The notes under the pieces were generated by a model. That model was not told where the DNA came from. It ran no database searches and saw only the letters and a program-made list of their open reading frames with translations. Position numbers and translations under genes: made by a program. This document shows, piece by piece, positions 11,621-51,846 of a stretch of 64,000 nt of DNA (within the stretch, counting starts at the first letter, position 1; the number at the start of each line of letters is the position of its first letter). Location: the IMG/VR virus record IMGVR_UViG_3300001097_000002, positions 1 through 64,000 of that record; one strand, 5' to 3'. The stretch is from a virus.

Positions 11621-11900
11621 TTCGACGCGAGCGTCTTCATCTTGCTTCGCATATCTAACTGCTGTCATATTAACTAACCAACTAACTAACTAACCAACTA
11701 TTGGCACTTAACATTTGAGAGTGACCATACTTCTATACTATAAAACATTATACTATTTGGTTATGCTAGATACTTATATTATCAAACACACATAACATAT
11801 ATATATCCCGGAGGCATAGGGTATAGAGAATTTCTTAAGCATATTGTATAAATGATAGAATAACACCCCTGTCAAGCATTGTCAAGTAAAGATTTGTAAT
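11621..11900 (-). repeat. Copy A of long dispersed inverted repeat (partner at 51525..51846)
   Basis: 11794-11900 is the reverse complement of 51525-51631 with 1 mismatch. 11699-11766 is the exact reverse complement of 51662-51729. Both share a distal GCGAAGC…ATGAAGA-hairpin-CGAAT motif. Confidence 0.95.
11774..11842 (-). CDS. Putative 22-aa micropeptide MLKKFSIPYASGIYICYVCLII
   Basis: Aligned differences from the copy at 51583 are synonymous or conservative apart from the last 1-2 residues. No SD sequence; lies just downstream of a sigma70-like promoter. Confidence 0.4.
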   Translation of the reverse strand: MLKKFSIPYASGIYICYVCLII

Positions 11901-12472
11901 TAAATTATTATCAACTATTTTATTATATTTTCTTTACATCATATGATTTGTTTGCTATAGTTAAGAAGTAAAGCAATATCGCATTACATTTATTTTATTA
12001 TTGGAGTTAAAAATATGAGCGTTTATGAAGTGGTTAATAACTATAATGGCTTTATACAAGAACTATTTAAAAACGGGTTTTATCCTTTTACTAACATGTC
12101 GAAAGATAAAATTGATGATAAACATTTTTACCGATTTGGAGCGGTTGGCTTTATTGAGCGTGATAACGAACTTTATTCAGTATATATTTCCTTGCATAAC
12201 AGTACGGTTACTGGTGAGCCAGACTCAGTATTCATGTTTGAATATCCTGTTAATCAATATGGTCCTAGTCGTAAAGTACGTAAGGCTCATGTTAATCATT
12301 TAGGCCAATTAGCAAGTGAAGTTGTAAAAATGTTTGACCTCGTTAAATTAAATGTCGGGTTTAATAATATGGAGTTCATTACTTTTGAGCGCGTTGATAG
12401 TGCCATATTCAAAGATGATTATGGTGTATTACACAACAAACCGATTATGTATTGTGAACAAGAAATAACTCA

Positions 12473-12979
12473 TTAAGTTTTAGCATTATCCTTATTCCAA
12501 ATAGTTACTGTGTCATCATCTTTATAGCGCGGGACTATGTGGACATGTAAATGGAATACGGTCTGGTCAGCATCCGCGCCTTTATTAACAATTAAATTAT
12601 AGTGTTTATAACCAGTTTCGTCTGCAATGGTTGATGCTAATTCAAACGCCACACCTGTTATGTGAGATTCTGTGCTTGCATCGTCAACGTGTATTACTGG
12701 TATAACAAGTAAGTGACCTGGTGTAATAGGGTCAAGTGGTGTGAAAGATAAAAAGTCAATACCTTTTAGTTTGTGTTTTTCGATGTTACTTGCTTCTATT
12801 TTTGAGTGGTCGCAAAACACACAATCCTTTTTTACAGGCGCTGCCTTTACTTCATCAACTGTTAAGAACTTTTTATTATATTCAGATTTGACCATATCGT
12901 CAAATATCTTGATACCACCTCCATCAAAAAGACCAGTACCTTTTTTCTCATTTAGAAACTCGTTAAAATTCATCATCAT
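12473..12979 (-). CDS. HIT-family nucleotide hydrolase with N-terminal capsid-targeting-like tag
   Basis: CVFC, PGHLLVIP and QTVFHLHVHIVPR (histidine triad). N-terminus MNFNEFLNE. Confidence 0.9.
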   Translation of the reverse strand: MMMNFNEFLNEKKGTGLFDGGGIKIFDDMVKSEYNKKFLTVDEVKAAPVKKDCVFCDHSKIEASNIEKHKLKGIDFLSFTPLDPITPGHLLVIPVIHVDDASTESHITGVAFELASTIADETGYKHYNLIVNKGADADQTVFHLHVHIVPRYKDDDTVTIWNKDNAKT

Positions 12980-13371
12980 TTGCTCTCATTTATTATGATT
13001 TGTTCAAACCAAAACGCTACTGGTTCGTCTGTTACTTCTACTTGATTGTATCGCTCAGCGAACTTAAAACACGTTGAGTTCTCACGTAACGATTTTATGC
13101 GGGCCGCTATTCTTTTTCTAAAATCTTCTATGGTTGAAGTGCTTTTATATATATTACAACTCGGACAGGATGGTGTCATATTCTCAAATGTGTCATTTTG
13201 CGGGTTTTTACTTTTACCTACGTCTATGCTAGTCAGCTTACCATCAACAACCTTAAACTCACACAGTCTATGTAAAGGCTTCATATGGTCAGCATGCCAA
13301 CCTTTTTGTAAATCTGTACCGCAATACGTACATTTACCACTGTACTCACGCTGTTTTTTAGATAATGCCAT
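12976..13371 (-). CDS. HNH endonuclease
   Basis: CTYCG…WHADH…NMTPSCPSCNIYKS. Confidence 0.85.
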   Translation of the reverse strand: MALSKKQREYSGKCTYCGTDLQKGWHADHMKPLHRLCEFKVVDGKLTSIDVGKSKNPQNDTFENMTPSCPSCNIYKSTSTIEDFRKRIAARIKSLRENSTCFKFAERYNQVEVTDEPVAFWFEQIIINESK

Positions 13372-13380
13372 TGTTACATC

Positions 13381-14184
13381 CTAGTTTAATTTAATAAGTG
13401 ATGCTTTGTGTGTAGATACACCACCACTTTTATATAGTGCTGAGGAACCACAGGTATTTGAAAATGAGCTACCTGTTTTTATTTTTGTTGTGCTACCAAC
13501 TTTCACACTGTAATTTTTACCAATAGTAACGTCCATGTTACCACCAACTTCCAACGTATAGTTACCTGCTATGTACTCTCTAACGTTACCACCAACCCAA
13601 ATACTTTGATTATCCGCAACAATCTCGTAGTCGTCTTTAACTGATTTACGTACAAAGTCACCGTCAGGGTAAAACTGATAGTATGTGCCGCTTTTATGTC
13701 TTACGTGAATACGTTCTGCGCCAGGTGTATCATCAATTTCTATAGTGTGGTTTGCGGTTGTTTTGGTTACTTTGTTATTTGGATATTCAGCACCATACGG
13801 ACTACCTGGCTCATAACCAATAGCGTTATTTTTGATAGTATTGGTGCCTCTACTCAATTCACTAACATCTAATTTGTCGTCAGTCTTAGCAGGGAAACTA
13901 AACAGCACCATTGGCACGTTGTTAGCTTTACCATCAACAAAAAATCCAACAATTTGACTACCAACCACGAGCGCGTGCGGAAGTGTACCAAGTTCACTTG
14001 TACTTGCGCTGTCAGTAGAGTTTGCTACAATAGCCCAAGGTAGTTTTTCTTTATTCACTGTCCCTTCAGCAGAATGCTTCCCAAACACTTGTACTTTTAC
14101 ACGACCTGATTCTAAAGGGTCCATTATATCAACAACTTCACCCATAAACCAGTGAAATTGTCCAAAACCAAATTCGTTATTCAT
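13381..14184 (-). CDS. gp5: Baseplate central spike (gp5-like), no lysozyme domain
   Basis: OB-fold WFMGEVVD.MDPL..GRVKV, YP.NKV…HTIEIDDTPGAERIH..H.SG, and VGGN beta-helix repeats. Confidence 0.9.
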   Translation of the reverse strand: MNNEFGFGQFHWFMGEVVDIMDPLESGRVKVQVFGKHSAEGTVNKEKLPWAIVANSTDSASTSELGTLPHALVVGSQIVGFFVDGKANNVPMVLFSFPAKTDDKLDVSELSRGTNTIKNNAIGYEPGSPYGAEYPNNKVTKTTANHTIEIDDTPGAERIHVRHKSGTYYQFYPDGDFVRKSVKDDYEIVADNQSIWVGGNVREYIAGNYTLEVGGNMDVTIGKNYSVKVGSTTKIKTGSSFSNTCGSSALYKSGGVSTHKASLIKLN

Positions 14185-14258
14185 ATATAGATTTCTCTTG
14201 TAAAGTGTGTATGTATCATATATAATATTTACTAACGTAAACTATTGGAGTAATTATT

Positions 14259-14552
14259 ATGAAAGATATATTAACAGAGCATTGCATAAGTCAAGATAGT
14301 TCTATTACTATTAAAGGCACAGACTGTTTAACAATATATATGTTCGTGGTGCACGGGTATGATGATACGTCATCATTAAAAATTGTTATTCATGATGCTT
14401 CATATGACACGGATATATACGACGAAATTGTTAGTGATAATGTTAAAGACATTCGCGATTTTATGAATAAATCATATCCACTAACATTAAAAGAAATTAT
14501 TAAGGCATCAGTTGTTTCTTTAAAAACAATGATTATACGTAAGCCTTTATAA
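14259..14552 (+). CDS. Hypothetical protein, paralog of 15393..15689
   Basis: Shared YDE..S.N…IRDFMNK.YPL…VVSLK.M. Confidence 0.7.
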   Translation: MKDILTEHCISQDSSITIKGTDCLTIYMFVVHGYDDTSSLKIVIHDASYDTDIYDEIVSDNVKDIRDFMNKSYPLTLKEIIKASVVSLKTMIIRKPL

Positions 14553-15392
14553 CTGGAATAAAAGTATGAGTGACTTTATGTTAAGCGGAACAGTAAAAAG
14601 TAAAAAACTTAGAACGTTTAGAGTAACAACCAATGATGATTGCGAAGGTAAAACATCAAAACATATTGGTTATTTTAAAGCGTTTAGTTTAGAACAGATA
14701 GCAGAATACATTGTGGAAAACGATATACAATATACCTATGATTATTACATTGACACAGTAGACGTAATTGACGTATCACACAATGAAGTAATATATGTTG
14801 CATCAGCAGTCCGCGGACGATATGGTAGAATAGATGTTGTGATACGTGAGAGTTTAAAAAAAGAATACCAAGCCACTAAAGGTTTAGCAAAATTAACAGT
14901 GGACGAGAAAAAGGCGCTGGGTCTTTAGTATTGTTTGCAATATACGTGTATATGTGTTACTATTATATCAGTTAGTTAAATTTACTTAAACTATTGGAGT
15001 TATTATGTCGTATTCAATTCATCAGTTAGAAAATATGGACAACCTTGAGTTATTAACTTTAAGCGAGCATAACCCTGATGATAAAAATATTCAGAAGGCT
15101 ATTGCTTATAAGTTTGCTGAGTTAGTCAATAACCAACGTGACTCAGTACCTTTACCTCATTTAAAGTATCTTTAACTCGTGGTAAAATCACAATTCCCAG
15201 CAGAAGACTTTTTAGAGGACACGATGTCAATCACTAGACTGTTGACAGATAAATCAACATTAAAAAAAGATATGGTTGTTTATGCAGAGGGGTTAAGGGA
15301 TGCCTTGAGAAGTATACAGGATGAGCAAGTAGGGTCAACCGAATATGCTTACGAAGTGGCTAATAATGTTGAAAACTATTAAGGTATAACTA

Positions 15393-15689
15393 ATGAAAAA
15401 CAATATCAAAAGCGAGAACAACAATACCCGTTTTAATTCATTATCTATTGGATGTGAGGATACGTTGCAACTTGATATGTATGTCACACACGAGCATGAT
15501 AATGAAAGTAATTTTCAAATTCAAATATACGATAAAGTGTATCAGGATATTTTATATGATGAAATGTTATCAGAAAACGCACGTAATATCCGTGATTTTA
15601 TGAATAAGGCATATCCACTATCGTTTCGCGAAGTTGTAGGTGTAGCAGTCGTTTCACTAAAATCAATGGTTGCGCTGAGGGGTTTATAA
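15393..15689 (+). CDS. Hypothetical protein, paralog of 14259..14552
   Basis: IRDFMNKAYPL block shared with 14259..14552. Confidence 0.7.
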   Translation: MKNNIKSENNNTRFNSLSIGCEDTLQLDMYVTHEHDNESNFQIQIYDKVYQDILYDEMLSENARNIRDFMNKAYPLSFREVVGVAVVSLKSMVALRGL

Positions 15690-17113
15690 TGAGTCTTTTT
15701 GAAGAAAGTAACAAGGTATTCTGCCTCTCGGAACCATTGATTTTTGGCATGCGTAAGGAAACCATATCAACAGAAGGCTTACTATGAAACATTTTTTTAT
15801 AACTACTAAAATAGAGGGTAATGTCAGTATTGAGGAACACGGACGATATGAATTTTATGGCAACAAGGACGTAAAATACACACTAAACAGCGCTAAAAAA
15901 GAATACTTAACTCGATTAAAAACACTGTCAAATGAGCTAATTCAAGCCATAGACTACATTGAGAACGATGAAGGTGCATACATACCACCGGTACTATTAA
16001 AGTCGCAACATGGCTGTAATAACCAGGATATTGATGATATGTGTAACACAACGACCTTTAGCGAAATAGGATAATAGTATGTCAAATGTAAGAGATAGTA
16101 TAGTAACCGATATTGACCACGATTTATATATATTAAGAGACAAGTTAAAGCAGGAAGACGATAATGATTATATTGCATTCATGCGTGGTAAATAGCAGCG
16201 CTTGATACTTTACGCACAAATATATTAAACGAATATTAAAGGACAAAACATGTACACTGAATCGGATTTTTTATTATTGGATATCGAACATCAACTATCA
16301 ATAGTACATAATTTATTACAAGAAGAAGAAGATGTAGTACGAATTTCATTTTTGCGAGGTAGATTGGACGCATATGAACAGATGCAACGCACGGTGTTAC
16401 GCAAATATCAAGTTTAATTTGACAACTTTATAGTATACAGTTACAGTTACTACCTATTAAGACATTTAACTACCGAAATCATTGGAGTTATTATGAAAAA
16501 TACAATTACTAATATTATGGACCCGTACTATACTTGTGCTGATGGTTTAGCTATACTTTTAAAAATTAGAGATGAATTAAGCGGTATGTATAATAGTGTT
16601 AACTCTGCTAAGATTTGGCAAAATGTAGAAAACCGCATTATAGAAACCGTATCAGAAGACGAATGGTTTATTATTGGTTGTCTATTGTTTAATGATGACC
16701 TAACCGACGATGAATTGTATAATGAATTTTTTAATACGGGTCATTACAACGGTATGGTAGAATTTATCGCCAATCCTGACGTTGTAATGGAACAAGTTTT
16801 TAATATTGTCGGTCACGGATAATTATTGGAGTTTATTATGAAATTTTTAGAAAGTTACTTTGTTATCGTCACTGGTTCAGAAGACGAGCGTTACGTCATT
16901 GTTGACAACAATGGACATTATGATTTATGTTCGCTCATACCTTGTGATTTAAGGTTTGAAAAGTTGAGTGACGCATATAAGTTATTACTTGATATTAATA
17001 ATTCTAACATGTTCGATTTTACAACATTAAGAATTGTACAAGTATCATCAAATATTGTACCATTATAGATTGCTGCCAGTGTTTAGTATCAATGGTAACT
17101 ATAAGGATTTAAC

Positions 17114-17518
17114 ATGAAACATGCAGTATGTGTATTAATTGTAGATGATAACGGCGAAGTGTTATGCGTCTCACGTAAAGATGATTTGATGGATTGGGGT
17201 TTGCCTGGTGGTAAACTTGATGATGGTGAAATGTCAGTCGTAGGAGCCATTAGAGAAACTGCTGAAGAAACTGGTCACAAAATAGTCATTGATAATATCG
17301 ATGAGTATTTTATTGGACGCTGTGGTGATTATAATGTTATAACATATAGAGCAAGCATAGTTGAATATGACTTCATTAAAATCTCACAAAAAGAAACTGG
17401 TGCAGTTGCGTTTCTTGACCCAAGTTATTTATTAAATGGCTCTTTTCGTAAATATAACGAATATTGCTTGTCATTTTTTAATGTTAAAACAAAAGAGGTA
17501 TATGATGAAACAGATTGA
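17114..17518 (+). CDS. Nudix hydrolase
   Basis: Nudix box WGLPGGKLDDGEMSVVGAIRETAEETG. Confidence 0.92.
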   Translation: MKHAVCVLIVDDNGEVLCVSRKDDLMDWGLPGGKLDDGEMSVVGAIRETAEETGHKIVIDNIDEYFIGRCGDYNVITYRASIVEYDFIKISQKETGAVAFLDPSYLLNGSFRKYNEYCLSFFNVKTKEVYDETD

Positions 17519-17676
17519 CACTAATCCAGTTAAGCGTAATATGGACAAAATGCATAAACCAGTTGAGCATAGAGATAAGAAAAAAGATGCTAAACGAGGT
17601 TATATTAAGAATCAAAAGTAGTAATAGTTAAGTGTTTTTATGTTATACTAAATACATATTCAAACACTACTAGGAT

Positions 17677-18156
17677 ATGACAATGATTACATTTAGAGAG
17701 TTTTTAAACGAGGGTACTGATAACCACCCATTTTTCATGCATGATGTTTTGATTCCACATAAAGCTAAATATGATATAATCAAGGCGGATGGTACACTTA
17801 CTAACCCTAAAGATTTGGGATGGGGTAGTCCCAATTTGACTGCTAGTGACATGCCTTATTACATTGGTACTATTGGATACCGAGTTGTCGGAAAAGAGGT
17901 AGGATACGAGTTATTCGAATTAAATGATTATGACAAAAAAGAATTTGGTAGTAGTAATGTATTTATGGTGTCTGGTGAAAGAATGATACATCAAACCCGC
18001 ACTATTGTTAAAATCAAAGGTCAAAAAATATATTTCATCGACAATGAAGCTTATGAGAATGGTGAAATAAAGTTTGAAAGTAGAGGTAATAATATTGTTC
18101 GTATTAGACTTAAAAACGAGAAGTATAATAAAAAAATCGCTGATATGGTAAGTTAA
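17677..18156 (+). CDS. Putative internal head protein (capsid-targeting tag)
   Basis: MITFREFLNE N-terminus; ACTAAATA late-type promoter at about 17647. Confidence 0.6.
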   Translation: MTMITFREFLNEGTDNHPFFMHDVLIPHKAKYDIIKADGTLTNPKDLGWGSPNLTASDMPYYIGTIGYRVVGKEVGYELFELNDYDKKEFGSSNVFMVSGERMIHQTRTIVKIKGQKIYFIDNEAYENGEIKFESRGNNIVRIRLKNEKYNKKIADMVS

Positions 18157-18177
18157 CAGTACAGTTACAATTACAAC

Positions 18178-18300
18178 TTGACCTTACCTATGTATGTTGC
18201 TATAATGTTTATGTAGGTTGGGAAAAGAGGTGTTTATTGCCACTCAACAAACAAACAAACAAACAAACAAACAATTAATTATATTATTGGAGTTTATGTT
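18178..18300 (+). promoter_or_regulatory. Early sigma70-like promoter cassette with GTAGGTTGGGA leader and (AAAC)n tract; inverted homolog at 32170..32270
   Basis: TTGACC-17-TATAAT with TG extension. About 39 nt (TTGCTATAAT…GGTGTTTA) are identical to the minus-strand copy. Ends in the TATTGGAG RBS. Confidence 0.8.
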
Positions 18301-18800
18301 ATGAATATGTCAGAAATGAATTCAACACCATTTTTTAACTATGCATTACGTCCGGATATTGAGCCAGAAGCGCTCAGTTCAGACCACGAGAAAGCAGACG
18401 CGCTTAAAAAACTAGTACGTAAGCAAAAATCGGTTTTCTGTTTTGTTGGTGATAGTGAAAAGCTTGTAATAATTGTTGGTTGTAAGAACAGAACTAGTAA
18501 CGATGACATTGACCTTTTTACTAGTAAAGATGACGATGGTTGGACAGTTAATCAACTTCAGCCTATCATTGAGTAATTAATAGGAGGTCATATAAGCGTT
18601 GGTAAAAGTTGTATTGTTTCTGATGCAATATATGATTGGTTTAACAATAAACGCGAGTATTATATTTTTAACTAATTATAACAGGATTTATATTATAATT
18701 TTACTTTATTATTAAGTCTAAGTAACGATATACCTGCACCAATCAAGTGCAATGAAGAATATCCTGAAACATGGTTTAATCATACACTTGTTAAATACTC

Positions 18801-18903
18801 GAGGCTGGTAGCATGGTTTAAAGAACATGCTGTGTTAATTGATAGTAACTTTGAAAATGACGGTGAATGTCATTTGGGGTTCGACTCCCACGCAAGCCGC
18901 CCA
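18801..18903 (+). pseudogene. Degenerate tRNA-like element (long variable arm, Ser/Leu-type)
   Basis: T-arm TGGGGTTCGACTCCCA, variable arm AATGAC…GTCATT and 3' CCA. Acceptor stem mismatched and anticodon loop irregular. Confidence 0.5.
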
Positions 18904-19160
18904 TATTTAAGTTGTAATATAGTTGACAAGGTATATTATTTTTGTTATACTATTTTAGTAAGTTAGAAGTTTAGCAGTTAATTATATTATTGGGAGTTTA
19001 TTATGTCAAAAGAAATAACGTACGGTTACTTTTTTCTACTTGGTGGATTGACTAATCCTAAATGTAGTACACGGTCTGTTTATAATGGCGATGTGTATAT
19101 GTACAGAAGATATTTTAAAATGTTTGATATTATTGCGTAAATACAATTAAAAAAAATCAT

Positions 19161-19238
19161 GTGCCCTTAGTTTAGCGGTCTAAAACACACAGCTCATAAC
19201 TGTCGAGAGCGTGAGTTCAAATCTCACAGGGCGCACCA
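19161..19238 (+). tRNA. tRNA with CAT anticodon (Met or lysidine-Ile2)
   Basis: Acceptor GTGCCCT/AGGGCGC, anticodon loop CTCATAA, GTTCAAATC, encoded CCA. Confidence 0.9.
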
Positions 19239-19598
19239 TATATTTATATTATTGGAGTTACTAATGAAAGATTTATTATTAGAAGTAATGAAGCTCAATA
19301 AAAATAACAAACACTGGACTAAAGTGTTTACAACAGAACATCCTATGTTGTATCTATTCTCACAAAACTATTACATTAAGGTTTATGAGAAAGATAGTGA
19401 TACCGCGATACTTGGCGCTATAAGTACAATTAACGATAAGTTGTTAGACACTATACATTGCCATACGGATGTAGACGCTGTAAATACAACTATAACAGTG
19501 CTTGTACATAGACAAAAAAGTATGTTATGATAAGCATATCAATTAGATGTTAAATTAATTTTTATATATTATAGTAAGTACAAGTAAAAAAAGAATAT

Positions 19599-19686
19599 GG
19601 AAGTCAGGCGAATACGGTTTGTCGCACCGGACTGTAAATCCGGCACTCACCATAGTATTTGGGTTCGAATCCCAAGGCTTCCACCA
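19599..19686 (+). tRNA. tRNA-Tyr(GTA)
   Basis: CCGGA-CTGTAAA-TCCGG anticodon arm, long variable arm, GGTTCGAATCC, CCA. Confidence 0.88.
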
Positions 19687-19690
19687 TTTA

Positions 19691-19765
19691 CGGGTCTAGC
19701 TTAATTGAATAAAGCGGCATACTATGGTGTATGTAGACATTGGTTTGATTCCAGTTACCCGACCA
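19691..19765 (+). pseudogene. Degenerate tRNA (probably Pro TGG)
   Basis: CGGGT…ACCCG-A-CCA acceptor and GGTTTGATTCC T-loop. Anticodon loop is only 6 nt (TATGGT). Confidence 0.5.
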
Positions 19766-19794
19766 CTTTTAATAATAGTAGGAGATATACAATA

Positions 19795-20162
19795 ATGAAA
19801 ACGTTTGAAGAGTATTTACAAGAAAGTAGTTCACGTGATGGGTATTTTGGTGTCCTGCCACACCAGGTGAAATACCGTTACTTGATGTTGTTCAACGCGT
19901 ATTGAGTCAAAAGAATATTGATTTTACAGTTTTTCCATCGCGTGGTCTTGGTGATACTTTTATTACAGTTGAATACACACAATATAATGAAGCGTTAGGT
20001 ATTGTTGATAAAAAACTTGCTAATTTTGAACATTTAGGTAATAAAGGTCGTGTTATTGATACCGTGGTAGTTCGCACATCGCAAGACTCACGTATTACTA
20101 ATGCTGTTTCATACACTGCTAAAAGTTCTGGTAAAGGTGTTACTAAAAAAGTAACTAAGTAA
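19795..20162 (+). pseudogene. Capsid-tagged protein gene split by a frameshift
   Basis: MKTFEEYLQE ORF stops at 19905. The -1 frame is open from about 19839 to 20162. Confidence 0.45.
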
Positions 20163-20229
20163 ATGTTTAATACGGTCATGTAGGTTAAGACTAAAGTTGC
20201 AATTGATACTTAAAATCCTACCCTAATAC

Positions 20230-20305: not shown

Positions 20306-20312
20306 CTTTACA

Positions 20313-21391: not shown

Positions 21392-21398
21392 TTAATAA

Positions 21399-22013: not shown

Positions 22014-22679
22014 ATTGGTTATTTTTAAAACTAATTGACAAGCGTGTCATATATTGTTATAGTTAGTACGCAGGTTAGGAGATAGGCACTTAAATTATAT
22101 TATTGGAGTAATTATTATGTCAAACATTAAAAAAGTTCACTTCGCAGAATTCGTTTTAAATATTTTAGACGTAGAGTTCAATACAGCTGATATCAACATT
22201 GATAAAGATGGTAGAGTTATTGACATTGATATTAATGATATGAGTATCCTAATGTTGTTCTCAAGTGATATGAAAATCGTTAGACAATTCCACGTTATGC
22301 AAAATGGAGAGACATTTTACAAAAAACGTAATAGTCCAGTTAGTGCATTACTAAAAGACATTGACGAAATTCATTCTGTATTGAATATTGCGTAGCATTG
22401 TTTACTTTGACACATCTAGTCTATTAAACTAGTTTTTTATATAAGGATTATAATATGGCAAGCGAGAGATATTTCCACGTTGCATTTACTACTGATAACA
22501 CACGTGGAGCAATACAATTTAAAACGGACAACTACCAATACGTTAACCTAAAAGTATTGACCAAACATATAGAAACTGATTTTTTTAAACATGGTATGCA
22601 AGGTATGTTAGTTATAACAAATATATTGGAGTTAGATAAAAGCGATTATATGGACTTTATGCGTTAATAGGAGTAAAAA

Positions 22680-31343: not shown

Positions 31344-32169
31344 TTTATTTGTATTTAAGCAATAAAAAATCTCCCTACGTTAATAGAGAGATTTTAAAAA
31401 GTGGTTATTAAGTGGGTTAGAAATAACATACATCGCAATCCTGTGATACAAATATATCGTGTATGTCTGTATTGGTGAATAAATCAATAAGACTAATGTC
31501 GTCAACTCTATGTATTAGTGCATTAGTGCCACTCATTCTAATATCAAACATTTCTACATACAAATACTTGTCACTCATTTGTAAATTAATGTGGTAGTTG
31601 TCTAATGTAATTTGTACCAAGTCAAGTTTAGAATTATAGTTCTTACGTAATACACGCTCTAAGATGTAATGATGGTTTAATACTAAATCACTTATAACAT
31701 CTAATGCAATAACCTTATCATCGTTAGATAATTTTTTCATAATAATCTCCAATAGTGTATCATTAATTTATAGTAGCGTGGACTGACAATATGACAGTCC
31801 CGTTATTCTTATTGAGTAATATAAGGTGAGTTCTCAGTAGTAAGGATATAATACATTACTTGATGTGTCTCTTAACGTTATCGACATGCATCAATATATC
31901 TATAAAAGTAACACACTCAACTGAGAACAAAGTAGTAATATCACAGCTATCTATATTTGAACCATTGTCAAAAACACCAAAGTATAAAATTTCTTGCAAC
32001 GAAAAGTTAAATTCGATTTCTATGTTTACACCATGTTTGATATTTTTAACAAATACAGTGTTAGACATTGCGTCTACTTCAAACTTAATAGTATCATCGC
32101 AAATATCAACGCCAAAGTTATGCATGATTGACTTGGCTAATACTTCTGCTTTATATTCATTTGACATAA

Positions 32170-32270
32170 TATGTAACTCCAATAATATAAATAATTGTTT
32201 GTTGAGTGACGGTAAACACCTCTTTTCCCAACCTACATAAACATTATAGCAAGTATAACCACATCTGTCA
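32170..32270 (-). promoter_or_regulatory. Early promoter cassette, inverted homolog of 18178..18300
   Basis: Minus strand TTGACA-17-TATAAT-GTTTATGTAGGTTGGGAAAAGAGGTGTTTA…CACTCAACAAACAATT…TATTGGAG. Confidence 0.8.
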
Positions 32271-32391
32271 AATAGTAATTGTAAGTGAATGTAATCAGTC
32301 CTCGTGGTCATCGCGTTACTAACTTCGCAATCCTTATAGACTTCAAAAGTATAATAGTAAGTAATGTTATAAACAACTAAGGTACTATAAC

Positions 32392-41680: not shown

Positions 41681-41689
41681 ATAATTCCC

Positions 41690-43290: not shown

Positions 43291-43999
43291 CTTTAATCAT
43301 ATCCTCTCTGAGAGCATATAACTTTTGTAACTCTCTTTCGCTGTCTTTCATACCACTCTTAATAACACTACGAGTATCAAACAAGTTTTCCATAGTGGCT
43401 GCAATAACACCAATTTTGTCTTTTGAATACAATGTACCATTAGCAGCAAGGCAATAATCTTTTTCGTGTGCTATTTTGGTACTATATTTCATATCTATCA
43501 TACTGTTTAATATATCGTCTACGTGCTCCTTTGATTTCATCACAAGAGTTTCAGCGCTCATGTTTAGCATCATTATGATAGATGGATACAAGCTTTTTAA
43601 ATCGCCACTAACAACCCAGTCAGTGCGTCCTAATACAGGTTCTTTAACGTGACCACCCATATAACTTTCACCGCCCTCAGCGTATACTTTAGGAGGTATG
43701 ACAATGCTATCTCTATCAAGTCTAGCGTAAATCATATTGTCCCATGGTTGCACGGTTGCAAAAATATCACTTGGGTTACTACGGCTTACGTGTGCAAATG
43801 ATAACGCCACCTGAATAAAGTTTAGCTTGTTATCAAGTTTAGATATTAATACAGTATCAGTCTCGTTATAGTCAATAAATGTGTTGAAGCTGTCCTGTTT
43901 AACTTTTTGGTTAACATCATCATATAATTTCTTAAGCTGTTCAAAACTCAACTTGTCAAGATGGTTCTCGACAAGCATTTCATACTTTTTTAAATTCAT
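43277..43999 (-). CDS. gp43: DNA polymerase B, middle subunit (ExoIII, motif A, first fingers helix)
   Basis: FIDYNETD (ExoIII), YMGGHVKEP, DLKSLYPSII (motif A), AANG..Y.K…G.I. Confidence 0.92.
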   Translation of the reverse strand: MNLKKYEMLVENHLDKLSFEQLKKLYDDVNQKVKQDSFNTFIDYNETDTVLISKLDNKLNFIQVALSFAHVSRSNPSDIFATVQPWDNMIYARLDRDSIVIPPKVYAEGGESYMGGHVKEPVLGRTDWVVSGDLKSLYPSIIMMLNMSAETLVMKSKEHVDDILNSMIDMKYSTKIAHEKDYCLAANGTLYSKDKIGVIAATMENLFDTRSVIKSGMKDSERELQKLYALREDMIKDGIK

Positions 44000-44377
44000 A
44001 TATCACCAATGTTAGATGTTAAAAAAGGGCACCTAATTATTATAGGCGCCCATTAGTATAACATAAAATTTTATAATAGCAAGATATAATTAGATTTGCA
44101 ATTTCAATTTATTAGCAGCACAATACGCACGCATAGCTTCATCAAGCAAAAGTTTATTATAACCAATCTCTATTGAATACATGTCATTTACTAGCACCAG
44201 CGGCACTAAATTACCTTTCATATCAACATTAACCTTTGCGATAGGTTTTATATTAGTATCAAAAGTTGTCTTAGTTATATATTTCATATCATGGTTTTTA
44301 TCAAAATGATATAGAATGATAAAATCATCTGCGTTTGGTTTGTAGCTCATATAATACTCCAAATAATAAATTAGTTT

Positions 44378-44992
44378 TTATAGATAGTCTACGATAGTAT
44401 TACCTGGCGTTCCGAACATAATTTTCGTATGTTGACCACCACCAAGTTCACGACTGTAAAAATACTCTGCTAGCTCTGGATACTTCTTAGGATAAGCCGG
44501 GTCGACATGTTCAGTGTTCAGTTTCTTACCTAGAATATCGCGTGCGTCATCAACTGTCTGTGCATACTTAATCGCTTCTGACATACCAATTGAGCGCACA
44601 ACAAATTTGAGCATACCGGCACTAGTTTCACCCATTGAACGGTCAAATTCATTAGATACCAAATCAGCCAACGCAATCGCGCCTTGCTTTGTTTGGTTTG
44701 TGAAACTAGCTACTGACTTACGACCATTTTTGTCTTTGTACAACTTACCGGCAATGATTTCACCGTTTTTTCGAATCAGTTTCCAAAACGTAATATTAAG
44801 CATATCTTCAGGACTATCAAAACCAGACCCTTTAATACCACCAATCTTAGCATATGAGCGTTGAACTAAGTCCCATACTACTAACTTGTGTTTTTCTTTC
44901 TTCTCGTTATCACCAATGATATTAATGTAACGTTCGTTAAGGTCGTTACCACTATCGCGTTCATGTAAGTAATCTTCAAATGCAACTGTCAT
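44378..44992 (-). CDS. Putative internal head protein (capsid-targeting tag)
   Basis: MTVAFEDYLHE…DLNE N-terminus. Confidence 0.55.
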   Translation of the reverse strand: MTVAFEDYLHERDSGNDLNERYINIIGDNEKKEKHKLVVWDLVQRSYAKIGGIKGSGFDSPEDMLNITFWKLIRKNGEIIAGKLYKDKNGRKSVASFTNQTKQGAIALADLVSNEFDRSMGETSAGMLKFVVRSIGMSEAIKYAQTVDDARDILGKKLNTEHVDPAYPKKYPELAEYFYSRELGGGQHTKIMFGTPGNTIVDYL

Positions 44993-45014
44993 TATTTATT
45001 CCTTTCTTAGTTTA

Positions 45015-45539
45015 TCAAGATAATACTGGATATTTATACTTTCCGACGTCCTGAATCCCATCAATTATATCAGGGGTCCGGCAAATACGATGGTGTCCAT
45101 TGTCAAAGTATTTAACGTCATAGTTATCAGGGAAGTTATCAAATACGGCTTTAACTCCATTGTAATCAATGACTTCATCATCTTTCTCAACCAATACAGC
45201 AACATCTGCCTTACTTGGAATGAATTTAGTATTGTCATCGCAAATCTCAGGACGGTTCAATGTTGGGTTAATACAAGGACTAATCAATACCGCATTATGT
45301 CCATATTTTACACTCATTGCGTTTGCAATGTAAGCGCCCATACTGTGACCAACAACAATAACGTCTTCATAATCACTCAAATCTTCAACCGCTTTACTAG
45401 CAATTGCGAGGGCGTTCTCCAAGCCATCATCATAGTCGATTGCAACAGCAACCTTATTAGTGAAAATGATATTAGTGAATTTGTCAGTATTAACACTACT
45501 GCCATATCCGTGAAAAAACAAAATGATAGAATCTTTCAT
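45015..45539 (-). CDS. YqiA/YcfP-like alpha/beta hydrolase (esterase)
   Basis: FHGYGSS, GHSMG nucleophile elbow, DEVID, GHH. Confidence 0.85.
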   Translation of the reverse strand: MKDSIILFFHGYGSSVNTDKFTNIIFTNKVAVAIDYDDGLENALAIASKAVEDLSDYEDVIVVGHSMGAYIANAMSVKYGHNAVLISPCINPTLNRPEICDDNTKFIPSKADVAVLVEKDDEVIDYNGVKAVFDNFPDNYDVKYFDNGHHRICRTPDIIDGIQDVGKYKYPVLS

Positions 45540-46115
45540 TAACTTATCTCCTTAAAGATTTATTATAACATAATATATACTATGGCACAACCGTAGAACC
45601 CTTACAATTGCGCGTATGTGAAATCATCAAGTTCATCAATAACACATTGTAAACCATTATCTTTGAAACGGTTGTAAAAGTAATTAACTTCCTTTGAACT
45701 CAAATTATACCCTATGGATAAATCATGAAGAAACTTAGAAGTTAGTTTTGATTTCTTGGAATTATACTCGCACACGGCCGCTTTAAAGTCATCTTCAGCA
45801 ACGACAACTTCGCGCACTGAATAATCAATAACAGTTTCGCGGACAATGGCTTTTTTAACGCCTAACATATCATAGTAAACATATGCACCTTCAACCGTTT
45901 CGCGCATGCCTACAACTCGACCTAACTTGTAATAGTAGATGGTTGTGAACATTGACTGTGTTGGTACTGGTGTATCGTTCATTGTATATTTATCTAAGTT
46001 ATTCATAATAATTCTCCTATCATTTAAACTGTTTCTCAAAACTACCACTAAATTATATAACAGCCACAAAAAAGTGTAAAGCTATATTACATAACTTTAC
46101 ACTCAATGATTTAAA

Positions 46116-46547
46116 TTAAATTGTTTCGACTGATTGATAATCAATAACAGTAATAGGTACAGGTTTAACTTCAAAGTATTCAGTACCGTCAGTATCAAAT
46201 CCGTAATAACTTTCGTAATACCCGTGACATAACAGATATCTACCACTAGGCATATGTTTTACTACTTGTTCCCAATGGTCACCGTCGCCTTCTCCGCCTT
46301 GACGCCTAACAATTTCGTATAACGTTTTTTCATCAAACGCACGTAACTTGTCTTCTAGCGCATCAGTACGTTCTCGCATTTCTACTCTATCGTCACCGTT
46401 AGTTTCAACAAAATCACTAAATTGATACATAAATTCGTCTGCAAAAAATACTCTAAGCTCATTCATAACATCTTTAAAAGTTTCAAATGATAATTCTTTA
46501 CCATGTACCATTTCTTCAAGTGTGCTGATAACGTCTTCGAATTCCAT
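46116..46547 (-). CDS. Hypothetical protein, local paralog family (C-terminal EV.P…Y)
   Basis: …GYYESYYG…YFEVKPVPITVIDY. Confidence 0.6.
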   Translation of the reverse strand: MEFEDVISTLEEMVHGKELSFETFKDVMNELRVFFADEFMYQFSDFVETNGDDRVEMRERTDALEDKLRAFDEKTLYEIVRRQGGEGDGDHWEQVVKHMPSGRYLLCHGYYESYYGFDTDGTEYFEVKPVPITVIDYQSVETI

Positions 46548-46602
46548 AGTGTTTTCCTTTTTGATAAAATTATATGTTACTAGTTTTTAACTACATTGTC
46601 AA

Positions 46603-46950
46603 TTATAATATATAGCAATCTGCACTATCAAGATGATACTTATTAACCATTACTTTTTCCTGTATTACTTTATCCCATTTATCATGTACCCACATTTCAC
46701 TATACAGTTCTTCAAAGCGCGATTGTTGATAATACTCGCCACTGACTTTATCAACATATATGTTAAAGTCAAAATAACTGCCGTGTTCAAATGACTCTAC
46801 ATATTCCATGCGCTCGTCAAACGCATTGACATCATCCATGAGCAAATAGCAAACAGTTACATCATATGCAAACTTTGTGCGTAATACCAGTAAGACTTCT
46901 TGTGGTAGCATATATTCACGGTTAATAAAACGATTATATAATTCTCTCAT
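46603..46950 (-). CDS. Hypothetical protein, same local family
   Basis: SGEYYQ…WDKVIQEKVMVNKY. Confidence 0.5.
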   Translation of the reverse strand: MRELYNRFINREYMLPQEVLLVLRTKFAYDVTVCYLLMDDVNAFDERMEYVESFEHGSYFDFNIYVDKVSGEYYQQSRFEELYSEMWVHDKWDKVIQEKVMVNKYHLDSADCYIL

Positions 46951-47489
46951 AACATAAGCCTAAATGTTGGTGTATTGGGTAACAGTAACTTCAGCGGTTT
47001 CGTATTGATATAATTGCACCAAATCAATGCAACAACCATCCATCAACACAAATAACATATCATCACGTGCTAGTTCTTTGTTGTTTAAGAAATCGTTAAT
47101 TAAGTTTTTCATAATGTTCGACACTCGTATTGTACATTTACAAGCTCTACTTTATCCCAATACTCCCAGTTTTCTGCTGTGCCATTAAGTCTATATAAGA
47201 AACCAAATGATTTAATGATAATATAGTTATAAGGCCCTTCCATTGATACGTCAATAATTTCAATGGTGTCAAGTGAAATAACATGATGCATATATTTACA
47301 TGCGTCTGTCATCAATTTCTTATCTCTTACATCAAACAGAACATTATTGTTTAAAAATTCAGCACCACTAAACTATGTTCAACAGACATTCTGGCGCACA
47401 CGATGTGACGTTGTTCTTTTGATAATCCTGCTAATTCATAACTACTCATAATCATTCTCCAATAATAAAATTTATATTAAACAGTATTG

Positions 47490-47861
47490 CTAGTACGGAG
47501 TATATACTGTTATTGTTTTTTCATGCGGCATAACTCTAGTCCAATTACCTATTTCGTATGATAGTGTATCGTATATCCTGTTAGGATACGTAAACATATA
47601 ATATACATCAGTATGTATACATTGCACAACTAAACAATCCTCTTCATCATCATCGCTACCTATAGACTCATATTCAAACATATTCCAAAATGCTTCATAT
47701 AGTAACGAATGGTTAACAATAATATCATCAACGATTACCGTCTCAATTGTATCAGCATCATTTAAATCAATTTTTACAAGCGTGTTTAACAAATCAAGCA
47801 AGTCAATATTTTGCATTCTTTCATTTGCTAAAAACAAACCTAGTCTATCTAAAATATTCAT
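47490..47861 (-). CDS. Hypothetical protein, same local family
   Basis: TDVYY…WTRVMPHEKTITVY. Confidence 0.5.
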   Translation of the reverse strand: MNILDRLGLFLANERMQNIDLLDLLNTLVKIDLNDADTIETVIVDDIIVNHSLLYEAFWNMFEYESIGSDDDEEDCLVVQCIHTDVYYMFTYPNRIYDTLSYEIGNWTRVMPHEKTITVYTPY

Positions 47862-48769
47862 AATGAAAACTCCAATGATAAAATTTTACGATAATAGAAC
47901 GGGTCAAATGCATCAATAATATCTGAGTAATTATCAATAGCAAACGCTCTAAAGAAACCACTTGCTAAGTCAGTACATACACGCATCAATGCCCACATAA
48001 AAGAGCTTCTAGCGTAATATTCTTTACTGTCATTTACTAGTTTTGGAATGATGCATCGTTCACTAGCAATCACGTAACACTCTTCTAATACAGTTTGCAC
48101 TTTTTCTAATTGTGTGAACTTATTCCATAAATGCTTGTAACATAACACTTCTCCGTTCTTCTGCATTTTATTATACATGGGTTTATCATTATGTGCAAAC
48201 ACTTCATGCAAATAATCATGTTCGATATATTTCTTAACACCATCATCAAAAAAATGTTCTTTAGTAACATTTAGTTTAGGCAACTTTTGCGCACCAAGTC
48301 GCAAGTCTGTATCAATTCTTTGCGTTCTGATTAACTCGCTCACTGTGTATGCGCTTGTTCCATATTGTTCATCATCAGTTAAACCACGTACTCGGTTTAA
48401 CTGTACGAGGTCACTCATATGCTTATCCCATTTACGCATACGTTGGTGGATATGACCACGTTTGATAATGTATAGCATAGTTGTATCAGCAAGGCTAATA
48501 GGCGCCCTGTAATAGGCGTTATATAGCTCTGCTAGTGTATTATCATATGCTACCAATAGTTCAATACGCTGCTCACCATCATTAAATGGGATAATGCTGT
48601 CTTTAGATATCTTATCCCTAAAACGATACGGAATGTCTTTTGGCATAACCACAACATCCAAATCAGCTTTTGTTCTATCATCAAGAACAGTAATCGCTTG
48701 GCTACCAACAACAATACCGTTATAAATACCGTTACTATGTAACAGCGCTTTTATATCATGAATATTCAT
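47858..48769 (-). CDS. Putative nucleotidyltransferase-fold protein
   Basis: N-terminal VGS.A…ADLDVV (Pol-beta-like GS/DxD); C-terminal HDYLHE.FAH…PMY…EECYVIASER…GFFR. Confidence 0.7.
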   Translation of the reverse strand: MNIHDIKALLHSNGIYNGIVVGSQAITVLDDRTKADLDVVVMPKDIPYRFRDKISKDSIIPFNDGEQRIELLVAYDNTLAELYNAYYRAPISLADTTMLYIIKRGHIHQRMRKWDKHMSDLVQLNRVRGLTDDEQYGTSAYTVSELIRTQRIDTDLRLGAQKLPKLNVTKEHFFDDGVKKYIEHDYLHEVFAHNDKPMYNKMQKNGEVLCYKHLWNKFTQLEKVQTVLEECYVIASERCIIPKLVNDSKEYYARSSFMWALMRVCTDLASGFFRAFAIDNYSDIIDAFDPFYYRKILSLEFSL

Positions 48770-49037
48770 AAATCACCCTTGTTACTGGTTTAACTTCATA
48801 CCATTCTTGTTCGTTGAATATGATGTGTGTACCATTGCGTGTATGTTGATAATAGCCGTTTTGTCGATAATGTTTACCATCATATGTGATAATCATATAC
48901 GCTTGACTATCAGTCAATATTTCTATAGCCGTACATTCAGCGCGTTCAACCATGGTATCATTAATCATGACACCATATTCAACGCTTGCGTGAACTAGAT
49001 GTTTATTGAGTTTATCCAAAAATTCGTCCTGTAACAT
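48756..49037 (-). CDS. Hypothetical protein, same local family
   Basis: DGKHYRQNGYY…WYEVKPVTRVIYEY. Confidence 0.55.
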   Translation of the reverse strand: MLQDEFLDKLNKHLVHASVEYGVMINDTMVERAECTAIEILTDSQAYMIITYDGKHYRQNGYYQHTRNGTHIIFNEQEWYEVKPVTRVIYEYS

Positions 49038-49509
49038 AATCCCTCCAATAAAAAAGTGACATACGAAATCATCTTATGCCACAATTATAACAAATTATTG
49101 ATGCGCTGTAAAGGTCTAAAACAAATCAACTATATTCTCAGAAAGTATTCTTGCGAAATCACCATCTAACGGTTTTGAGTTATACACCATATTGTGCTTG
49201 ATTTCAGCAATTGACAATCCTGACGGTTTAGATAGTTCTACTGCTAATGCGTTAACATTTCGCAGCGCAACATCATTAATTATATTATCCTCGTTTTCTG
49301 CGCAATACTCCCATAATGTCATCAGTAATTCAGTAGTCATCATTTCAGCATATGCTAAGTTTTTAAACTGATAAGACATAACAATTGCTCTGGCGGTTGG
49401 CCTATACATTGTAACCGATACACCACTAAAATTTGATAATTGCATCGCCACTTCTATTTGATATTGTAGGCTAACAATCAAGTCGCCATCATCAAACTTA
49501 ACAATTTCT

Positions 49510-50709
49510 TTAAATGTCATTGTTCTCCTCCAACATCATATCAAGTCTTGTGGCAACCATAGTTCTAATCCTTGCCCATCGGTCTTTTTCTGGTAGTTCT
49601 TCAATGTTTGTTTCTTCTGGTAGTTCTTCAATGTTTGTTTCTTCTGGTATATCATACACACCACAATACAAGTTCATTAGACTGTCTTTGTATTCGCTAT
49701 AATTTACTTTTTTCTCGCCAAGCTCAACATCAGAAATATGGTCAAGTGTATATCGTTCTTGCTTAGCCTTTGCGTACTGTTTATATAATGCCATATAGTC
49801 TAAATGAGTAAGACCAAAGATATTATATTCTAATGATGGTGCTCGCTTGTTTTCTTTAATAACGTTCTTACCGTATGCACTAAATGGACTTAGTTTATTA
49901 GTAACAGCGTTACCTACAATCTTTCTAGCGCGAGTTACAAGATATGGTATATCAAATAACACACCAAACCAACTAGTGATAAAGTCAAACTGTTCGTCTA
50001 CAAAAACGTTGATAAATGCCGTAATCAGTTCTTTCTCATTTCTACATTGTAGATACTCAATATCCGATTTTCCAGTATACCCTTTTAATCCAAGTCCGCC
50101 TGTTTTAACAATGTTATGTCCAACGATAACTTGATAGGTGATACTAAGAATTTCAGCAATTGCATCCTCGGGTTTCGGAAAGCCGATGTTCTGGTCAGCA
50201 TACGTAGAGTCTTTATACCAAACCATTTTTTTATAGAACGGGTCCATCACTTTAATATCAGCAAGATTATCGAAGTTTTTAATTTGTTTGTAAAATGCTT
50301 CTTTAGTTGGACCCTTACCTTCTTTATATACAACGGTGTCGAAATTCGTATATGTAAAACCATCACCATGATTAACTTCAATATCAAAGGATATCGTTTT
50401 ATACAAAGGTTCGTCCACGCTTACTTCTTCATACTCCTTTGATATAAATTGCTGTATAGGTGAAGTGTTTCCGAATATATTTTCCATTTGGTTGTTGTGT
50501 ACGAAATCATTAAGCTTATATATAGTATCAAATTCGATACGTTTTAACTTGTCACCATACAAACTAATATAGTCTCCACTTATACTTTTTGTGAATAGTT
50601 CATATGGATAGTTTTTTACAATCTCAATATGACGTTCACCATCTTGTATATAACGATGAAACAGCGTGTCGCCCATTGTTCCCACGAACGTATAATACCG
50701 CTTACTCAT
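49510..50709 (-). CDS. gp43: DNA polymerase B, N-terminal subunit (N-domain, ExoI, ExoII)
   Basis: SFDIEV (ExoI), ITSW…FDIPYL (ExoII), LDYMALYK…YTLDHIS..ELGEKK. Ends before ExoIII with a non-polymerase tail. Confidence 0.92.
   Translation of the reverse strand: MSKRYYTFVGTMGDTLFHRYIQDGERHIEIVKNYPYELFTKSISGDYISLYGDKLKRIEFDTIYKLNDFVHNNQMENIFGNTSPIQQFISKEYEEVSVDEPLYKTISFDIEVNHGDGFTYTNFDTVVYKEGKGPTKEAFYKQIKNFDNLADIKVMDPFYKKMVWYKDSTYADQNIGFPKPEDAIAEILSITYQVIVGHNIVKTGGLGLKGYTGKSDIEYLQCRNEKELITAFINVFVDEQFDFITSWFGVLFDIPYLVTRARKIVGNAVTNKLSPFSAYGKNVIKENKRAPSLEYNIFGLTHLDYMALYKQYAKAKQERYTLDHISDVELGEKKVNYSEYKDSLMNLYCGVYDIPEETNIEELPEETNIEELPEKDRWARIRTMVATRLDMMLEENNDI
49588..49649 (-). repeat. In-frame 27-bp tandem duplication (EETNIEELP x2)
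   Basis: TTCTGGTAGTTCTTCAATGTTTGTTTC twice plus a partial third copy. Confidence 0.95.
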
Positions 50710-50747
50710 TTATAATCCTTAATAGTTAACAGATATACAATTATCAT

Positions 50748-51248
50748 TTAGTCGAACAGATTCTCATTCCATTCACGATGCCCTTCCCTAAATGCCATAT
50801 TCGATTGTGTTTCTCGAACAGAAACTCTATAGCACCACACATTTTTAGCAACTTCTTTACCAAACGCTTCTTCGATAAAAATACCGTTAATGTACTTGTA
50901 CACGAAGTCAGCGATTGATTCACAACCAGTATGCTCAACTTCAGTAATTTTAGCAATACCTAGTTCACCTAATGCTTTAATTTGGTTGTACATTGGGTCA
51001 TCACTACTTAGCAATAAAGTATGGTCAAACCATTCCTCCAACTTTTCTTTAAGTGGTTTCAAACCACCGTATTCTACTTGTCCCCAATTACGTGTATCTA
51101 ATTCATTTGAACCAAAATATAATTTAAAACTAAAACTATATCCATGTATTTTATTACAGTGTGAATCGGCCCTCCATTGTCTGTATGCACACGGAAAAGC
51201 ATCGACATATTCTTTCGTGACTGTGTATTTGTAATTTATGTTATTCAC
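50748..51248 (-). CDS. queD: 6-carboxy-tetrahydropterin synthase (QueD/PTPS family)
   Basis: SHCNKIHGYS, FDHTLL, TGCESIA, VSVRET. Confidence 0.85.
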   Translation of the reverse strand: MNNINYKYTVTKEYVDAFPCAYRQWRADSHCNKIHGYSFSFKLYFGSNELDTRNWGQVEYGGLKPLKEKLEEWFDHTLLLSSDDPMYNQIKALGELGIAKITEVEHTGCESIADFVYKYINGIFIEEAFGKEVAKNVWCYRVSVRETQSNMAFREGHREWNENLFD

Positions 51249-51524
51249 TTATTATCTCCCATTCTGTTAGTTTTTTATCGTTAACTTTTTTCATAATTTG
51301 ATATCTGTTAATATTAGTTGCCTGTACACATTCACTTGTTGACACACAAACCAATATGGTGTTTTTACCTTTATGCCTGTTGTTGGTGCTATACCTTTTA
51401 CAAACTCACCATTATTATACACTGTTTTGTATCATATTTTCACACCTTTTAATTGATTAGTTAATGCTTATATATAGTAATGCAAAACACGCCTAATGTA
51501 AAGTAAACGTATATCATTAAAACT

Positions 51525-51846
51525 ATTACAAATCTTTACTTGACAATGCTTGACAGGGGTGTTATTCTATCATTTATACAATATGCTTAAGAAATTCTCT
51601 ATACCCTATGCCTCTGGGATATATATATGTTTTATATGCATTCGATAATAATAGTAATGATGCATAACCAAATAGTATAATGTTTTATAGTATAGAAGTA
51701 TGGTCACTCTCAAATGTTAAGTGCCAATAATTGATAATACGCTTTATTTGAGTGATTAGCTACAAAAACAAGCTATAATAAGCTATATTTGAGTGATTAG
51801 CTATATAGTATAACGCGAAGCTAATGAAGATGCGAAAGCATCGAAT
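51525..51846 (+). repeat. Copy B of long dispersed inverted repeat (partner at 11621..11900)
   Basis: See copy A. Includes TTGACA(51540)-17-TATTCT with TG extension, TTTGAGTGATTAGCTA x2, GCGAAGC (51815) and GATGC-GAAA-GCATC (51829). Confidence 0.95.
51583..51648 (+). CDS. Putative 21-aa micropeptide MLKKFSIPYASGIYICFICIR
   Basis: Paralog of 11774..11842 with synonymous and conservative changes. Confidence 0.4.
   Translation: MLKKFSIPYASGIYICFICIR

Follow-up and report, generated by a model that had tools for sequence, protein, structure and literature searches.

Early-promoter units without a following gene form a dispersed family in an uncultured T4-like phage and may encode a noncoding RNA or leader

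Some bacterial small RNAs, such as OmrA/OmrB and Qrr1-5, occur in multiple copies with conserved ends and a variable middle. T4-type phages carry promoter-early stem-loops (PeSLs), mobile regulatory cassettes (Arbiol et al. 2010, PMC2839356; PMC4122927) with a terminator or stem-loop followed by an early promoter (Comeau et al. 2014, PMC4122927). Promoters are also part of T4 replication origins: oriE contains iterons and relies on an early promoter, oriF and oriG each combine a promoter with an AT-rich unwinding element, and all three are placed at points of transcriptional divergence (Kreuzer & Brister 2010, PMC3016281). These origins have no common sequence, and the formation of an R-loop needs none (PMC3016281). 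Here we describe a repeated element, the unit, in IMG/VR virus record IMGVR_UViG_3300001097_000002. The window, the whole stretch of DNA that we analyzed, is the first 64 kb of this 96.9-kb record and contains two copies in inverted orientation, A and B. A third copy, C, lies on another fragment. We tentatively read A and B as members of a dispersed family of at least three early transcription units that hold no gene, that would make a noncoding RNA or leader, and that are related to PeSLs and homogenized by recombination. Judging from sequence, we give this reading a probability of roughly 40%.

A model that saw only the letters of the window (hereafter the sequence-only reading) had described two look-alike inverted elements with a shared architecture, and the repeat search bore this out. 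The inverted arms lie at 11787-11900 / 51525-51638 (114 nt, 96% identical) and 11695-11766 / 51662-51733 (72 nt, 99%). Within-genome blastn aligned A to B with E = 2e-80, and a 200-bp match at such identity is far above chance. In the pairwise alignment, the promoter (TTGACA-17-TATTCT with TG, as described earlier) is identical at 43 of 43 positions and transcribed block 1 at 61 of 62. Together they make 104/105, close to the ~107 bp with one mismatch first reported. The variable part between the blocks (20/29 identical, 3 gap columns) and block 2 (68/69) correspond to the variable ~30 bp and 68 AT-rich bp of that description. The tails could not be aligned apart from a terminal module in which GCGAAGC is followed by ATGAAGA and then by a 5-bp hairpin that has one compensated pair (GACGC/GCGTC in A, GATGC/GCATC in B). 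Both the motif with its compensated hairpin and the copy-specific repeats had been recognized before, and the repeats of B are longer than stated (2 x 29 nt). The features of the two copies are as follows.

11933..11961, plus strand: divergent early promoter (TTTACA-17-TATAGT with TG) of gene 12015-12476, ~50 bp upstream of A; its counterpart is kept at B
11857..11885, minus strand: promoter of copy A, TTGACA-17-TATTCT with extended -10 TGT; another TTGACA is found 10 bp downstream
11787..11900, minus strand: block 1 of copy A (upstream box, promoter and first ~60 transcribed bases), from the repeat search and alignment
11767..11786, minus strand: variable stretch of copy A, the apical part of the predicted long hairpin, from the alignment and fold
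11695..11766, minus strand: block 2 of copy A; in the consensus fold, block 1 pairs through its 3' half with the 5' half of this block
11671..11700, minus strand: short repeats specific to copy A, of the TAACTAACCAACTA type on the plus strand (three 14-nt units, 8-nt spacing)
11644..11650, minus strand: GCGAAGC motif of copy A
11624..11635, minus strand: terminal 5-bp hairpin of copy A, GACGC-TC-GCGTC, without a U-run, 31 nt beyond the stop of the convergent plus-strand gene 11441-11593
51474..51502, minus strand: divergent promoter-like site TTTACA-17-TACTAT upstream of B, facing queD (50748-51248)
51540..51568, plus strand: promoter of copy B, same as that of A
51525..51638, plus strand: block 1 of copy B, from the repeat search and alignment
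51639..51661, plus strand: variable apical stretch of copy B, from the alignment and fold
51662..51733, plus strand: block 2 of copy B, from the repeat search and fold
51734..51803, plus strand: direct repeats of copy B, 2 x 29 nt (51734-51762 and 51775-51803), 93% alike, 41-nt spacing
51815..51821, plus strand: GCGAAGC motif of copy B
51829..51842, plus strand: terminal hairpin of copy B, GATGC-GAAA-GCATC, containing GCGAAAGC, without a U-run, in the 'stem-loop' position immediately before the following early promoter
51852..51880, plus strand: ordinary early promoter cassette (TTGACA-17-TATAGT, leader, Shine-Dalgarno) of gene 51935-52198

Among public sequencing runs, the phage is present in a single DNA run, a hypersaline (salt) lake metagenome, and is listed in no RNA run. 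Contigs from the DNA run span every junction, and the 62-nt unitig shared by the copies has a depth of 24.8 compared with 14.7 for the flanks. The repeat is therefore not an assembly artefact, an outcome that the sequence-only reading had allowed for. Upstream, the homology between A and B continues for ~50 bp and reaches into a divergent promoter, TTTACA-N17-TAnnnT, on the opposite strand, so that both copies are bidirectional promoter regions. Because it has its own cassette promoter, gene 51935-52198 is independent of the promoter of copy B.

The sequence-only reading had described A and B as twins and had proposed a search for further copies. A third copy exists outside the record. An 11.4-kb contig of the public run (depth 14.3 vs 14.7 for the phage) ends in the promoter block, with two differences, and its upstream part is sequence absent from the 96.9-kb record. 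An exact search with the flank of this contig retrieved a second IMG/VR fragment of 20.6 kb, G001, which carries copy C. The sequence common to G001 and the record consists of short promoter/leader cassettes only. Because the run depth is equal and only cassette families are shared, G001 is most likely another piece of the same phage genome.

L012:2203-2741 (sequence from G001): copy C, between the DnaB/gp41-like helicase gene and queC

The promoter of C has the double TTGACA seen in A, and none of its three substitutions touches the -35, TG or -10 positions. Over the promoter and block 1 (the first ~60 transcribed bases), C matches A and B at 99-100 of 105 positions (94-95%). Identity is lower in block 2, with 34/43 (79%) in its first part and 16/26 (62%) in its second, and the flanks cannot be aligned. 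In the variable stretch, 16 nt of C are identical to A where B differs. The tail of C is longer than those of A and B and holds remnants of other early promoters. It ends with GCGTAGC (L012:2705-2711), directly followed by a canonical terminator with a T7 run. This mosaic identity, with A and C alike in the variable stretch and A and B in block 2, points to gene conversion. A candidate 'joint' from 51635 to 51907, which would have been a deleted form, was ruled out because the copy-C contig gives two local matches (G001:18472-18503 = 51907-51938).

Downstream of C are queC, a GATase gene, an unassigned 425-aa open reading frame (ORF) and queF; upstream, on the other strand, is the DnaB/gp41-like helicase gene. 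The divergent upstream genes of A and C showed no homology to each other. Genes of the 7-deazaguanine pathway adjoin two of the three copies, with queD (50748-51248, minus strand) beside B and queC...queF (L012:2793-6401, plus strand) downstream of C. The queC, GATase, 425-aa (possibly DpdA-like) and queF genes sit behind a strong terminator and have no clear promoter of their own. A preQ1-type riboswitch before queC or queD was rejected, as there was no Rfam match.

No ORF with a ribosome-binding site follows the promoter in A, B or C, and the small ORFs inside the units are absent from the protein collection, where they were never called as genes. In B and C, the unit is followed by an ordinary early promoter cassette (51852-51880 and L012:2437-2465, respectively), so the unit occupies the place of a gene in the cassette array. 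This gene-like place is the main reason for reading the unit as an RNA gene or leader. Each unit consists of a host-sigma70-type early promoter, a ~170-nt conserved noncoding leader (block 1, variable tip, block 2), a copy-specific tail, GCGNAGC and a terminal hairpin, which in C is a full intrinsic terminator. Host RNA polymerase would fire from these promoters right after infection and produce a noncoding RNA of roughly 240-500 nt. On the sense strand, its conserved 5' domain would form a long, imperfect hairpin tipped by the variable stretch, and the RNA may be a small regulatory RNA or a leader that acts in cis. The copies would be kept alike in patches by phage homologous recombination, as are the PeSL-type cassettes of this genome. 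Similar to OmrA/OmrB and Qrr1-5, the units would be noncoding paralogues, each with a promoter of its own and a conserved domain common to all, and the copy-specific stretch may direct each to different targets. The units are longer, however, and only one of the three has a canonical terminator. Of the interpretations in the sequence-only reading, duplicated small-RNA loci comes closest to ours, except that with a third copy the loci are not just twins.

The predicted fold bears on this reading in both directions. The RNAalifold consensus is a hairpin between the 3' half of block 1 and the 5' half of block 2, and the variable stretch makes up its tip; such a hairpin would explain why a variable stretch lies between two conserved blocks. 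The fold has 41 pairs, with 96.7% of cells paired. Three pairs are changed on both sides, and two of them account for the only block-1 changes in C. Because ten pairs are G-U, the fold is specific to the promoter strand (-15.9 kcal/mol for the sense strand vs -9.1 kcal/mol for the antisense strand). We regard the long block 1/block 2 hairpin as suggestive only.

Several observations weigh against an RNA gene or leader. Folds of the single sequences were no better than those of dinucleotide shuffles (z = -0.71, +1.13, and 0.1 to 0.8), the alignment fold differed little from column shuffles (z = -1.25), and 22 of 500 pair shuffles reached the observed level of covariation. The minimum-energy fold of C differs from the consensus fold, and A, B and C all lacked an Rfam match at thresholds as loose as E = 5. 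The comparison includes three sequences only, of which two hardly differ, and the identity among the copies could be due to gene conversion alone. The tail of C resembles a patchwork of promoter remnants. Lastly, the hairpins of A and B may not terminate transcription because they lack a U-run. In a separate analysis, pairing of the units with the multi-copy mRNA leaders of the phage was no better than that of shuffles (z -1.9 to +1.6).

The same region could also be read as a leader-peptide gene, in which a 20-22-codon ORF (MLKKFSIPYA...), 14 nt after the -10, would encode the product itself or control the downstream RNA fold. The ORF is open in A, B and C, each time with a C-x-x-C near its end, and it overlaps the 5' arm of the predicted hairpin. 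It lacks a Shine-Dalgarno sequence, however, whereas the genes of this phage carry TTGGAG. Furthermore, a 2-nt indel puts the 16 nt that A and C have in common here (TTATGTGTGTTTGATA) into different frames, and C-x-x-C is thus a by-product of the (TG)n run. We estimate that, at this base composition, chance leaves ~22% of 20-codon frames open, and the ORFs are missing from the protein collection. A CxxC micropeptide was rejected on the grounds that the frames of A and C differ and that the ORFs were never called as genes. We therefore consider a leader-peptide gene very improbable.

Near the 3' end, each of the three copies has a GCGNAGC immediately before its terminal hairpin (GCGAAGC in A and B, GCGTAGC in C). 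The motif occurs 17 times in 235 kb of strand (117 kb), and the chance expectation in the tail of C is about 0.001-0.02. Because it is this rare, its presence beside all three hairpins is unlikely to be due to chance. GCGAAGC and GCGAAAGC form mini-hairpins at the complementary-strand origin of G4 and at the virion-polymerase promoters of N4 (Hirao review, PMC13037366). The sequence-only reading had invoked this precedent for phage replication origins. The motifs themselves are present: A and B contain GCGAAGC, C contains GCGTAGC, and in B GCGAAAGC makes up the tip of the hairpin. But the precedent covers single-stranded DNA phages and N4 only (PMC13037366). The known roles are on single-stranded DNA templates (primase, N4 vRNAP), and no such enzyme or context is evident here.

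The promoter of the unit fits, in A, B and C, the early class of the phage itself, TTGACA-N14-TGn-TAnnnT, which heads many small genes, often directly after a true terminator. Several families of cassettes are built on early promoters. The I3 family has five copies, each with an early promoter, a ~70-nt leader and a Shine-Dalgarno sequence, and with the core GTAGGTTGGGAAAAGAGGTGTTTA (18178-18300, plus strand; 32165-32271, minus strand; L012:8971-9100, 10282-10410 and 11051-11137); one copy has an (ACAA)n microsatellite in its leader (18240-18275). In the tail of C, the second early promoter (L012:2437-2465) has a 17-nt core, ATGCTAGTCTTGCTATA, equal to that of the I3-family promoters of G001, and a further -10-like box, TGTTATAGT, lies at L012 about 2540-2552. 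Another cassette family (D3/D7 among the repeated families) combines TTGAC[AC]-17-TATAGT with the leader TATTGAGTAGTTCGGAAAGGCAGTTTAAAC... and heads consecutive small genes after B (51852-51929, 52211-52288) and one gene at 22.1 kb (22035-22065).

Compared with these cassettes and with described PeSLs, the units are related but distinct. Like PeSLs, they carry dispersed, near-identical sigma70-type early promoters (TTGACA-17-TATTCT with TG; n=3, at 11.8 kb, at 51.7 kb and in G001) in plastic intergenic regions of a T4-like phage, and their patchy identity is consistent with recombination. In copy B, the terminal hairpin also directly precedes another early promoter, in the manner of a PeSL stem-loop. 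This same genome is rich in true PeSL-like cassettes (terminator, promoter, leader, Shine-Dalgarno), whose upstream stem-loops reach -17 to -20 kcal/mol with a U-run, whereas the 60 nt before the promoters of A, B and C fold at only -2.7 to -4.2 kcal/mol and hold no such stem-loop. PeSLs are short and end in the Shine-Dalgarno sequence and start codon of a gene. The units, by contrast, have 170-500 nt of transcribed sequence that holds no gene, no Shine-Dalgarno sequence with a start codon heads a gene for 280-540 nt, and a second conserved block lies 60-130 nt past the start.

The abundance of cassettes raises the possibility that the units are passive regulatory debris, that is, surplus copies of an early promoter and a former leader that recombination in plastic regions (PeSL-type shuffling) has spread and homogenized in patches. 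Their transcribed part would be functionless, and at most the units would supply the downstream genes with an extra upstream promoter. The genome is indeed full of repeated promoter/leader cassettes (I3, present twice in the window and three times in G001, and D3/D7), many early promoters follow true terminators as in PeSLs (PMC4122927), the tail of C carries remnants of other promoter cassettes, and the fold statistics are not significant. In addition, a 293-bp tandem duplication, in which one gene start has decayed, occupies the region left of A. Debris alone accounts less well for an intact promoter and nearly unchanged first 60 transcribed bases in 3/3 copies, for the GCGNAGC and hairpin end kept in all three, and for block-1 changes in C that are matched by changes in block 2. 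On balance, we find this explanation possible but rather unlikely.

The 293-bp duplication (11098-11175 / 11391-11468) includes a promoter, leader and start-codon region. Its second duplicate heads a gene for a 50-aa membrane protein (11441-11593) that converges on A, and the first is followed by a 14-codon stump. Just inside copy A, the minus-strand region 12473-14184 encodes a HIT-family protein, an HNH endonuclease and a short gp5-like baseplate hub protein.

The preferred reading of A and B as units for a noncoding RNA or leader also has to be weighed against a role in replication. The sequence-only reading had proposed two transcription-primed origins. With copy C included, there would be three or more R-loop origins, at which early-promoter RNA hybridized in the AT-rich (TA)n stretch primes the leading strand and the repeats serve as iterons. 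The analogy with T4 is fair: oriE has an early promoter and iterons, and oriF and oriG combine a promoter with an unwinding element (PMC3016281). Somewhat like T4 origins, the promoter of the unit is followed by an AT-rich stretch that may melt easily, and direct repeats that recall the iterons of oriE occur in A (three units at 8-nt spacing) and B (two 29-nt repeats). B is located at the cumulative GC-skew minimum and at a divergence point adjoining the polymerase genes, and C at a divergence point adjoining the gp41-like helicase gene, so that B and C resemble T4 origins in lying at divergence points near replication genes. When all genome windows are ranked by instability, the least stable 40-100-bp windows of A and B fall within the top 0.37-0.81%.

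Nevertheless, we found nothing specific to origins. The suggested GC-skew check showed that the turns follow gene orientation and give no independent signal; many intergenic stretches are less stable than A and B; C has no direct repeats; and A is not at a major strand switch. The G-U-rich, strand-specific pairing is expected of RNA rather than duplex DNA, and the mini-hairpin precedent is limited to single-stranded DNA phages and N4. Whereas oriF and oriG use MotA-dependent middle promoters, the -35 of the unit (TTGACA) is of the early type. A MotA domain was not found in the record, which is 43% complete, and the control genomes gave no signal either. Moreover, T4 origins are mutually unlike in sequence while the units are 80-100% alike. 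Because R-loop origins need no conserved sequence, origins would leave 170 nt of conservation unexplained. We therefore judge R-loop origins improbable. A narrower version, to which we give slightly less credence still, is that the units are three or more sequence-related, early-promoter-primed origins at the divergence points beside the polymerase and helicase gene blocks, in which the leader hairpin and GCGNAGC would set the primer end or primosome loading.

The inverted placement of A and B had also suggested arms that exist to flip the 39.6-kb interior and thereby switch something. At 114 and 72 nt, the arms have sufficient length for homologous recombination, the phage encodes UvsX, and a flip would leave the units unchanged, as both fire outward. 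No serine or tyrosine recombinase (PF00239, PF00589) was found in the 96.9-kb record, however, although positive controls worked, and the interior has core genes on both strands, so that a flip switches nothing obvious. Copy C indicates a repeat family rather than a dedicated pair. The assembly is unbroken through both arms, which hints at one dominant orientation, although contigs built from 31-nt words cannot show inversion. We thus regard a dedicated inversion switch as having very little chance of being right. Because no site-specific recombinase gene was found, any inversion would be only a by-product of homologous recombination, which is plausible between the 114- and 72-nt arms and silent for the units. 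In our preferred reading, the inverted orientation of A and B would be incidental, each copy lying at a divergent promoter region and firing outward.

The phage itself is an uncultured, distant T4-like myovirus. The 96.9-kb record (CheckV completeness 43%) encodes a split family-B polymerase, UvsX, a ligase, a gp5-like hub, tail proteins and five tRNAs, and its best GenBank phage relatives have <40% amino-acid identity. Relatives of the polymerase N-fragment were found as proteins in ENA and Logan, at 81-41% identity, the closer ones at 72-81%. The loci found via protein guidance were ≤39% identical, too remote for noncoding comparison. A search of GenBank phages with the element DNA gave no match, nor did exact block 1 and block 2 patterns against IMG/VR and JGI metagenomes, where we sought the DNA of relatives, or the block-1 pattern against 185,579 prokaryote genomes. 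A codon-degenerate micro-ORF pattern and an I3-cassette pattern each matched only G001, and a covariance model of the 170-nt core found no copies beyond A, B and C in 237 kb. Two plus-strand paralogues of 534 and 536 aa (5955-7559 and 7669-9279) match Vsr-like/PD-(D/E)XK endonucleases and helix-turn-helix (HTH) domains; PHROG labels them 'homing endonuclease', and they have no recombinase catalytic domain. A guide RNA of the IscB/TnpB type was rejected, since the large nearby proteins are Vsr-like/HTH proteins and not RuvC/HNH nucleases.

Whichever reading holds, A and B should not be taken for a dedicated two-part device, given that there is a third copy. In practical terms, inverted repeats of 100-200 bp that lie 40 kb apart can leave the order of the interior uncertain in short-read assemblies. 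If the units are promoter debris only, they are one more case of recombination-driven cassette turnover. If they were origins, they would be the first T4-like origins with a recognizable common sequence, which could be found by homology in uncultured T4-like phages. To our knowledge, a role has been established for very few phage small RNAs. Should the RNA prove real, the units would be a multi-copy family of early noncoding RNAs in a T4-like phage, and the combination of a conserved 5' domain with a copy-specific tail would invite a search for targets.

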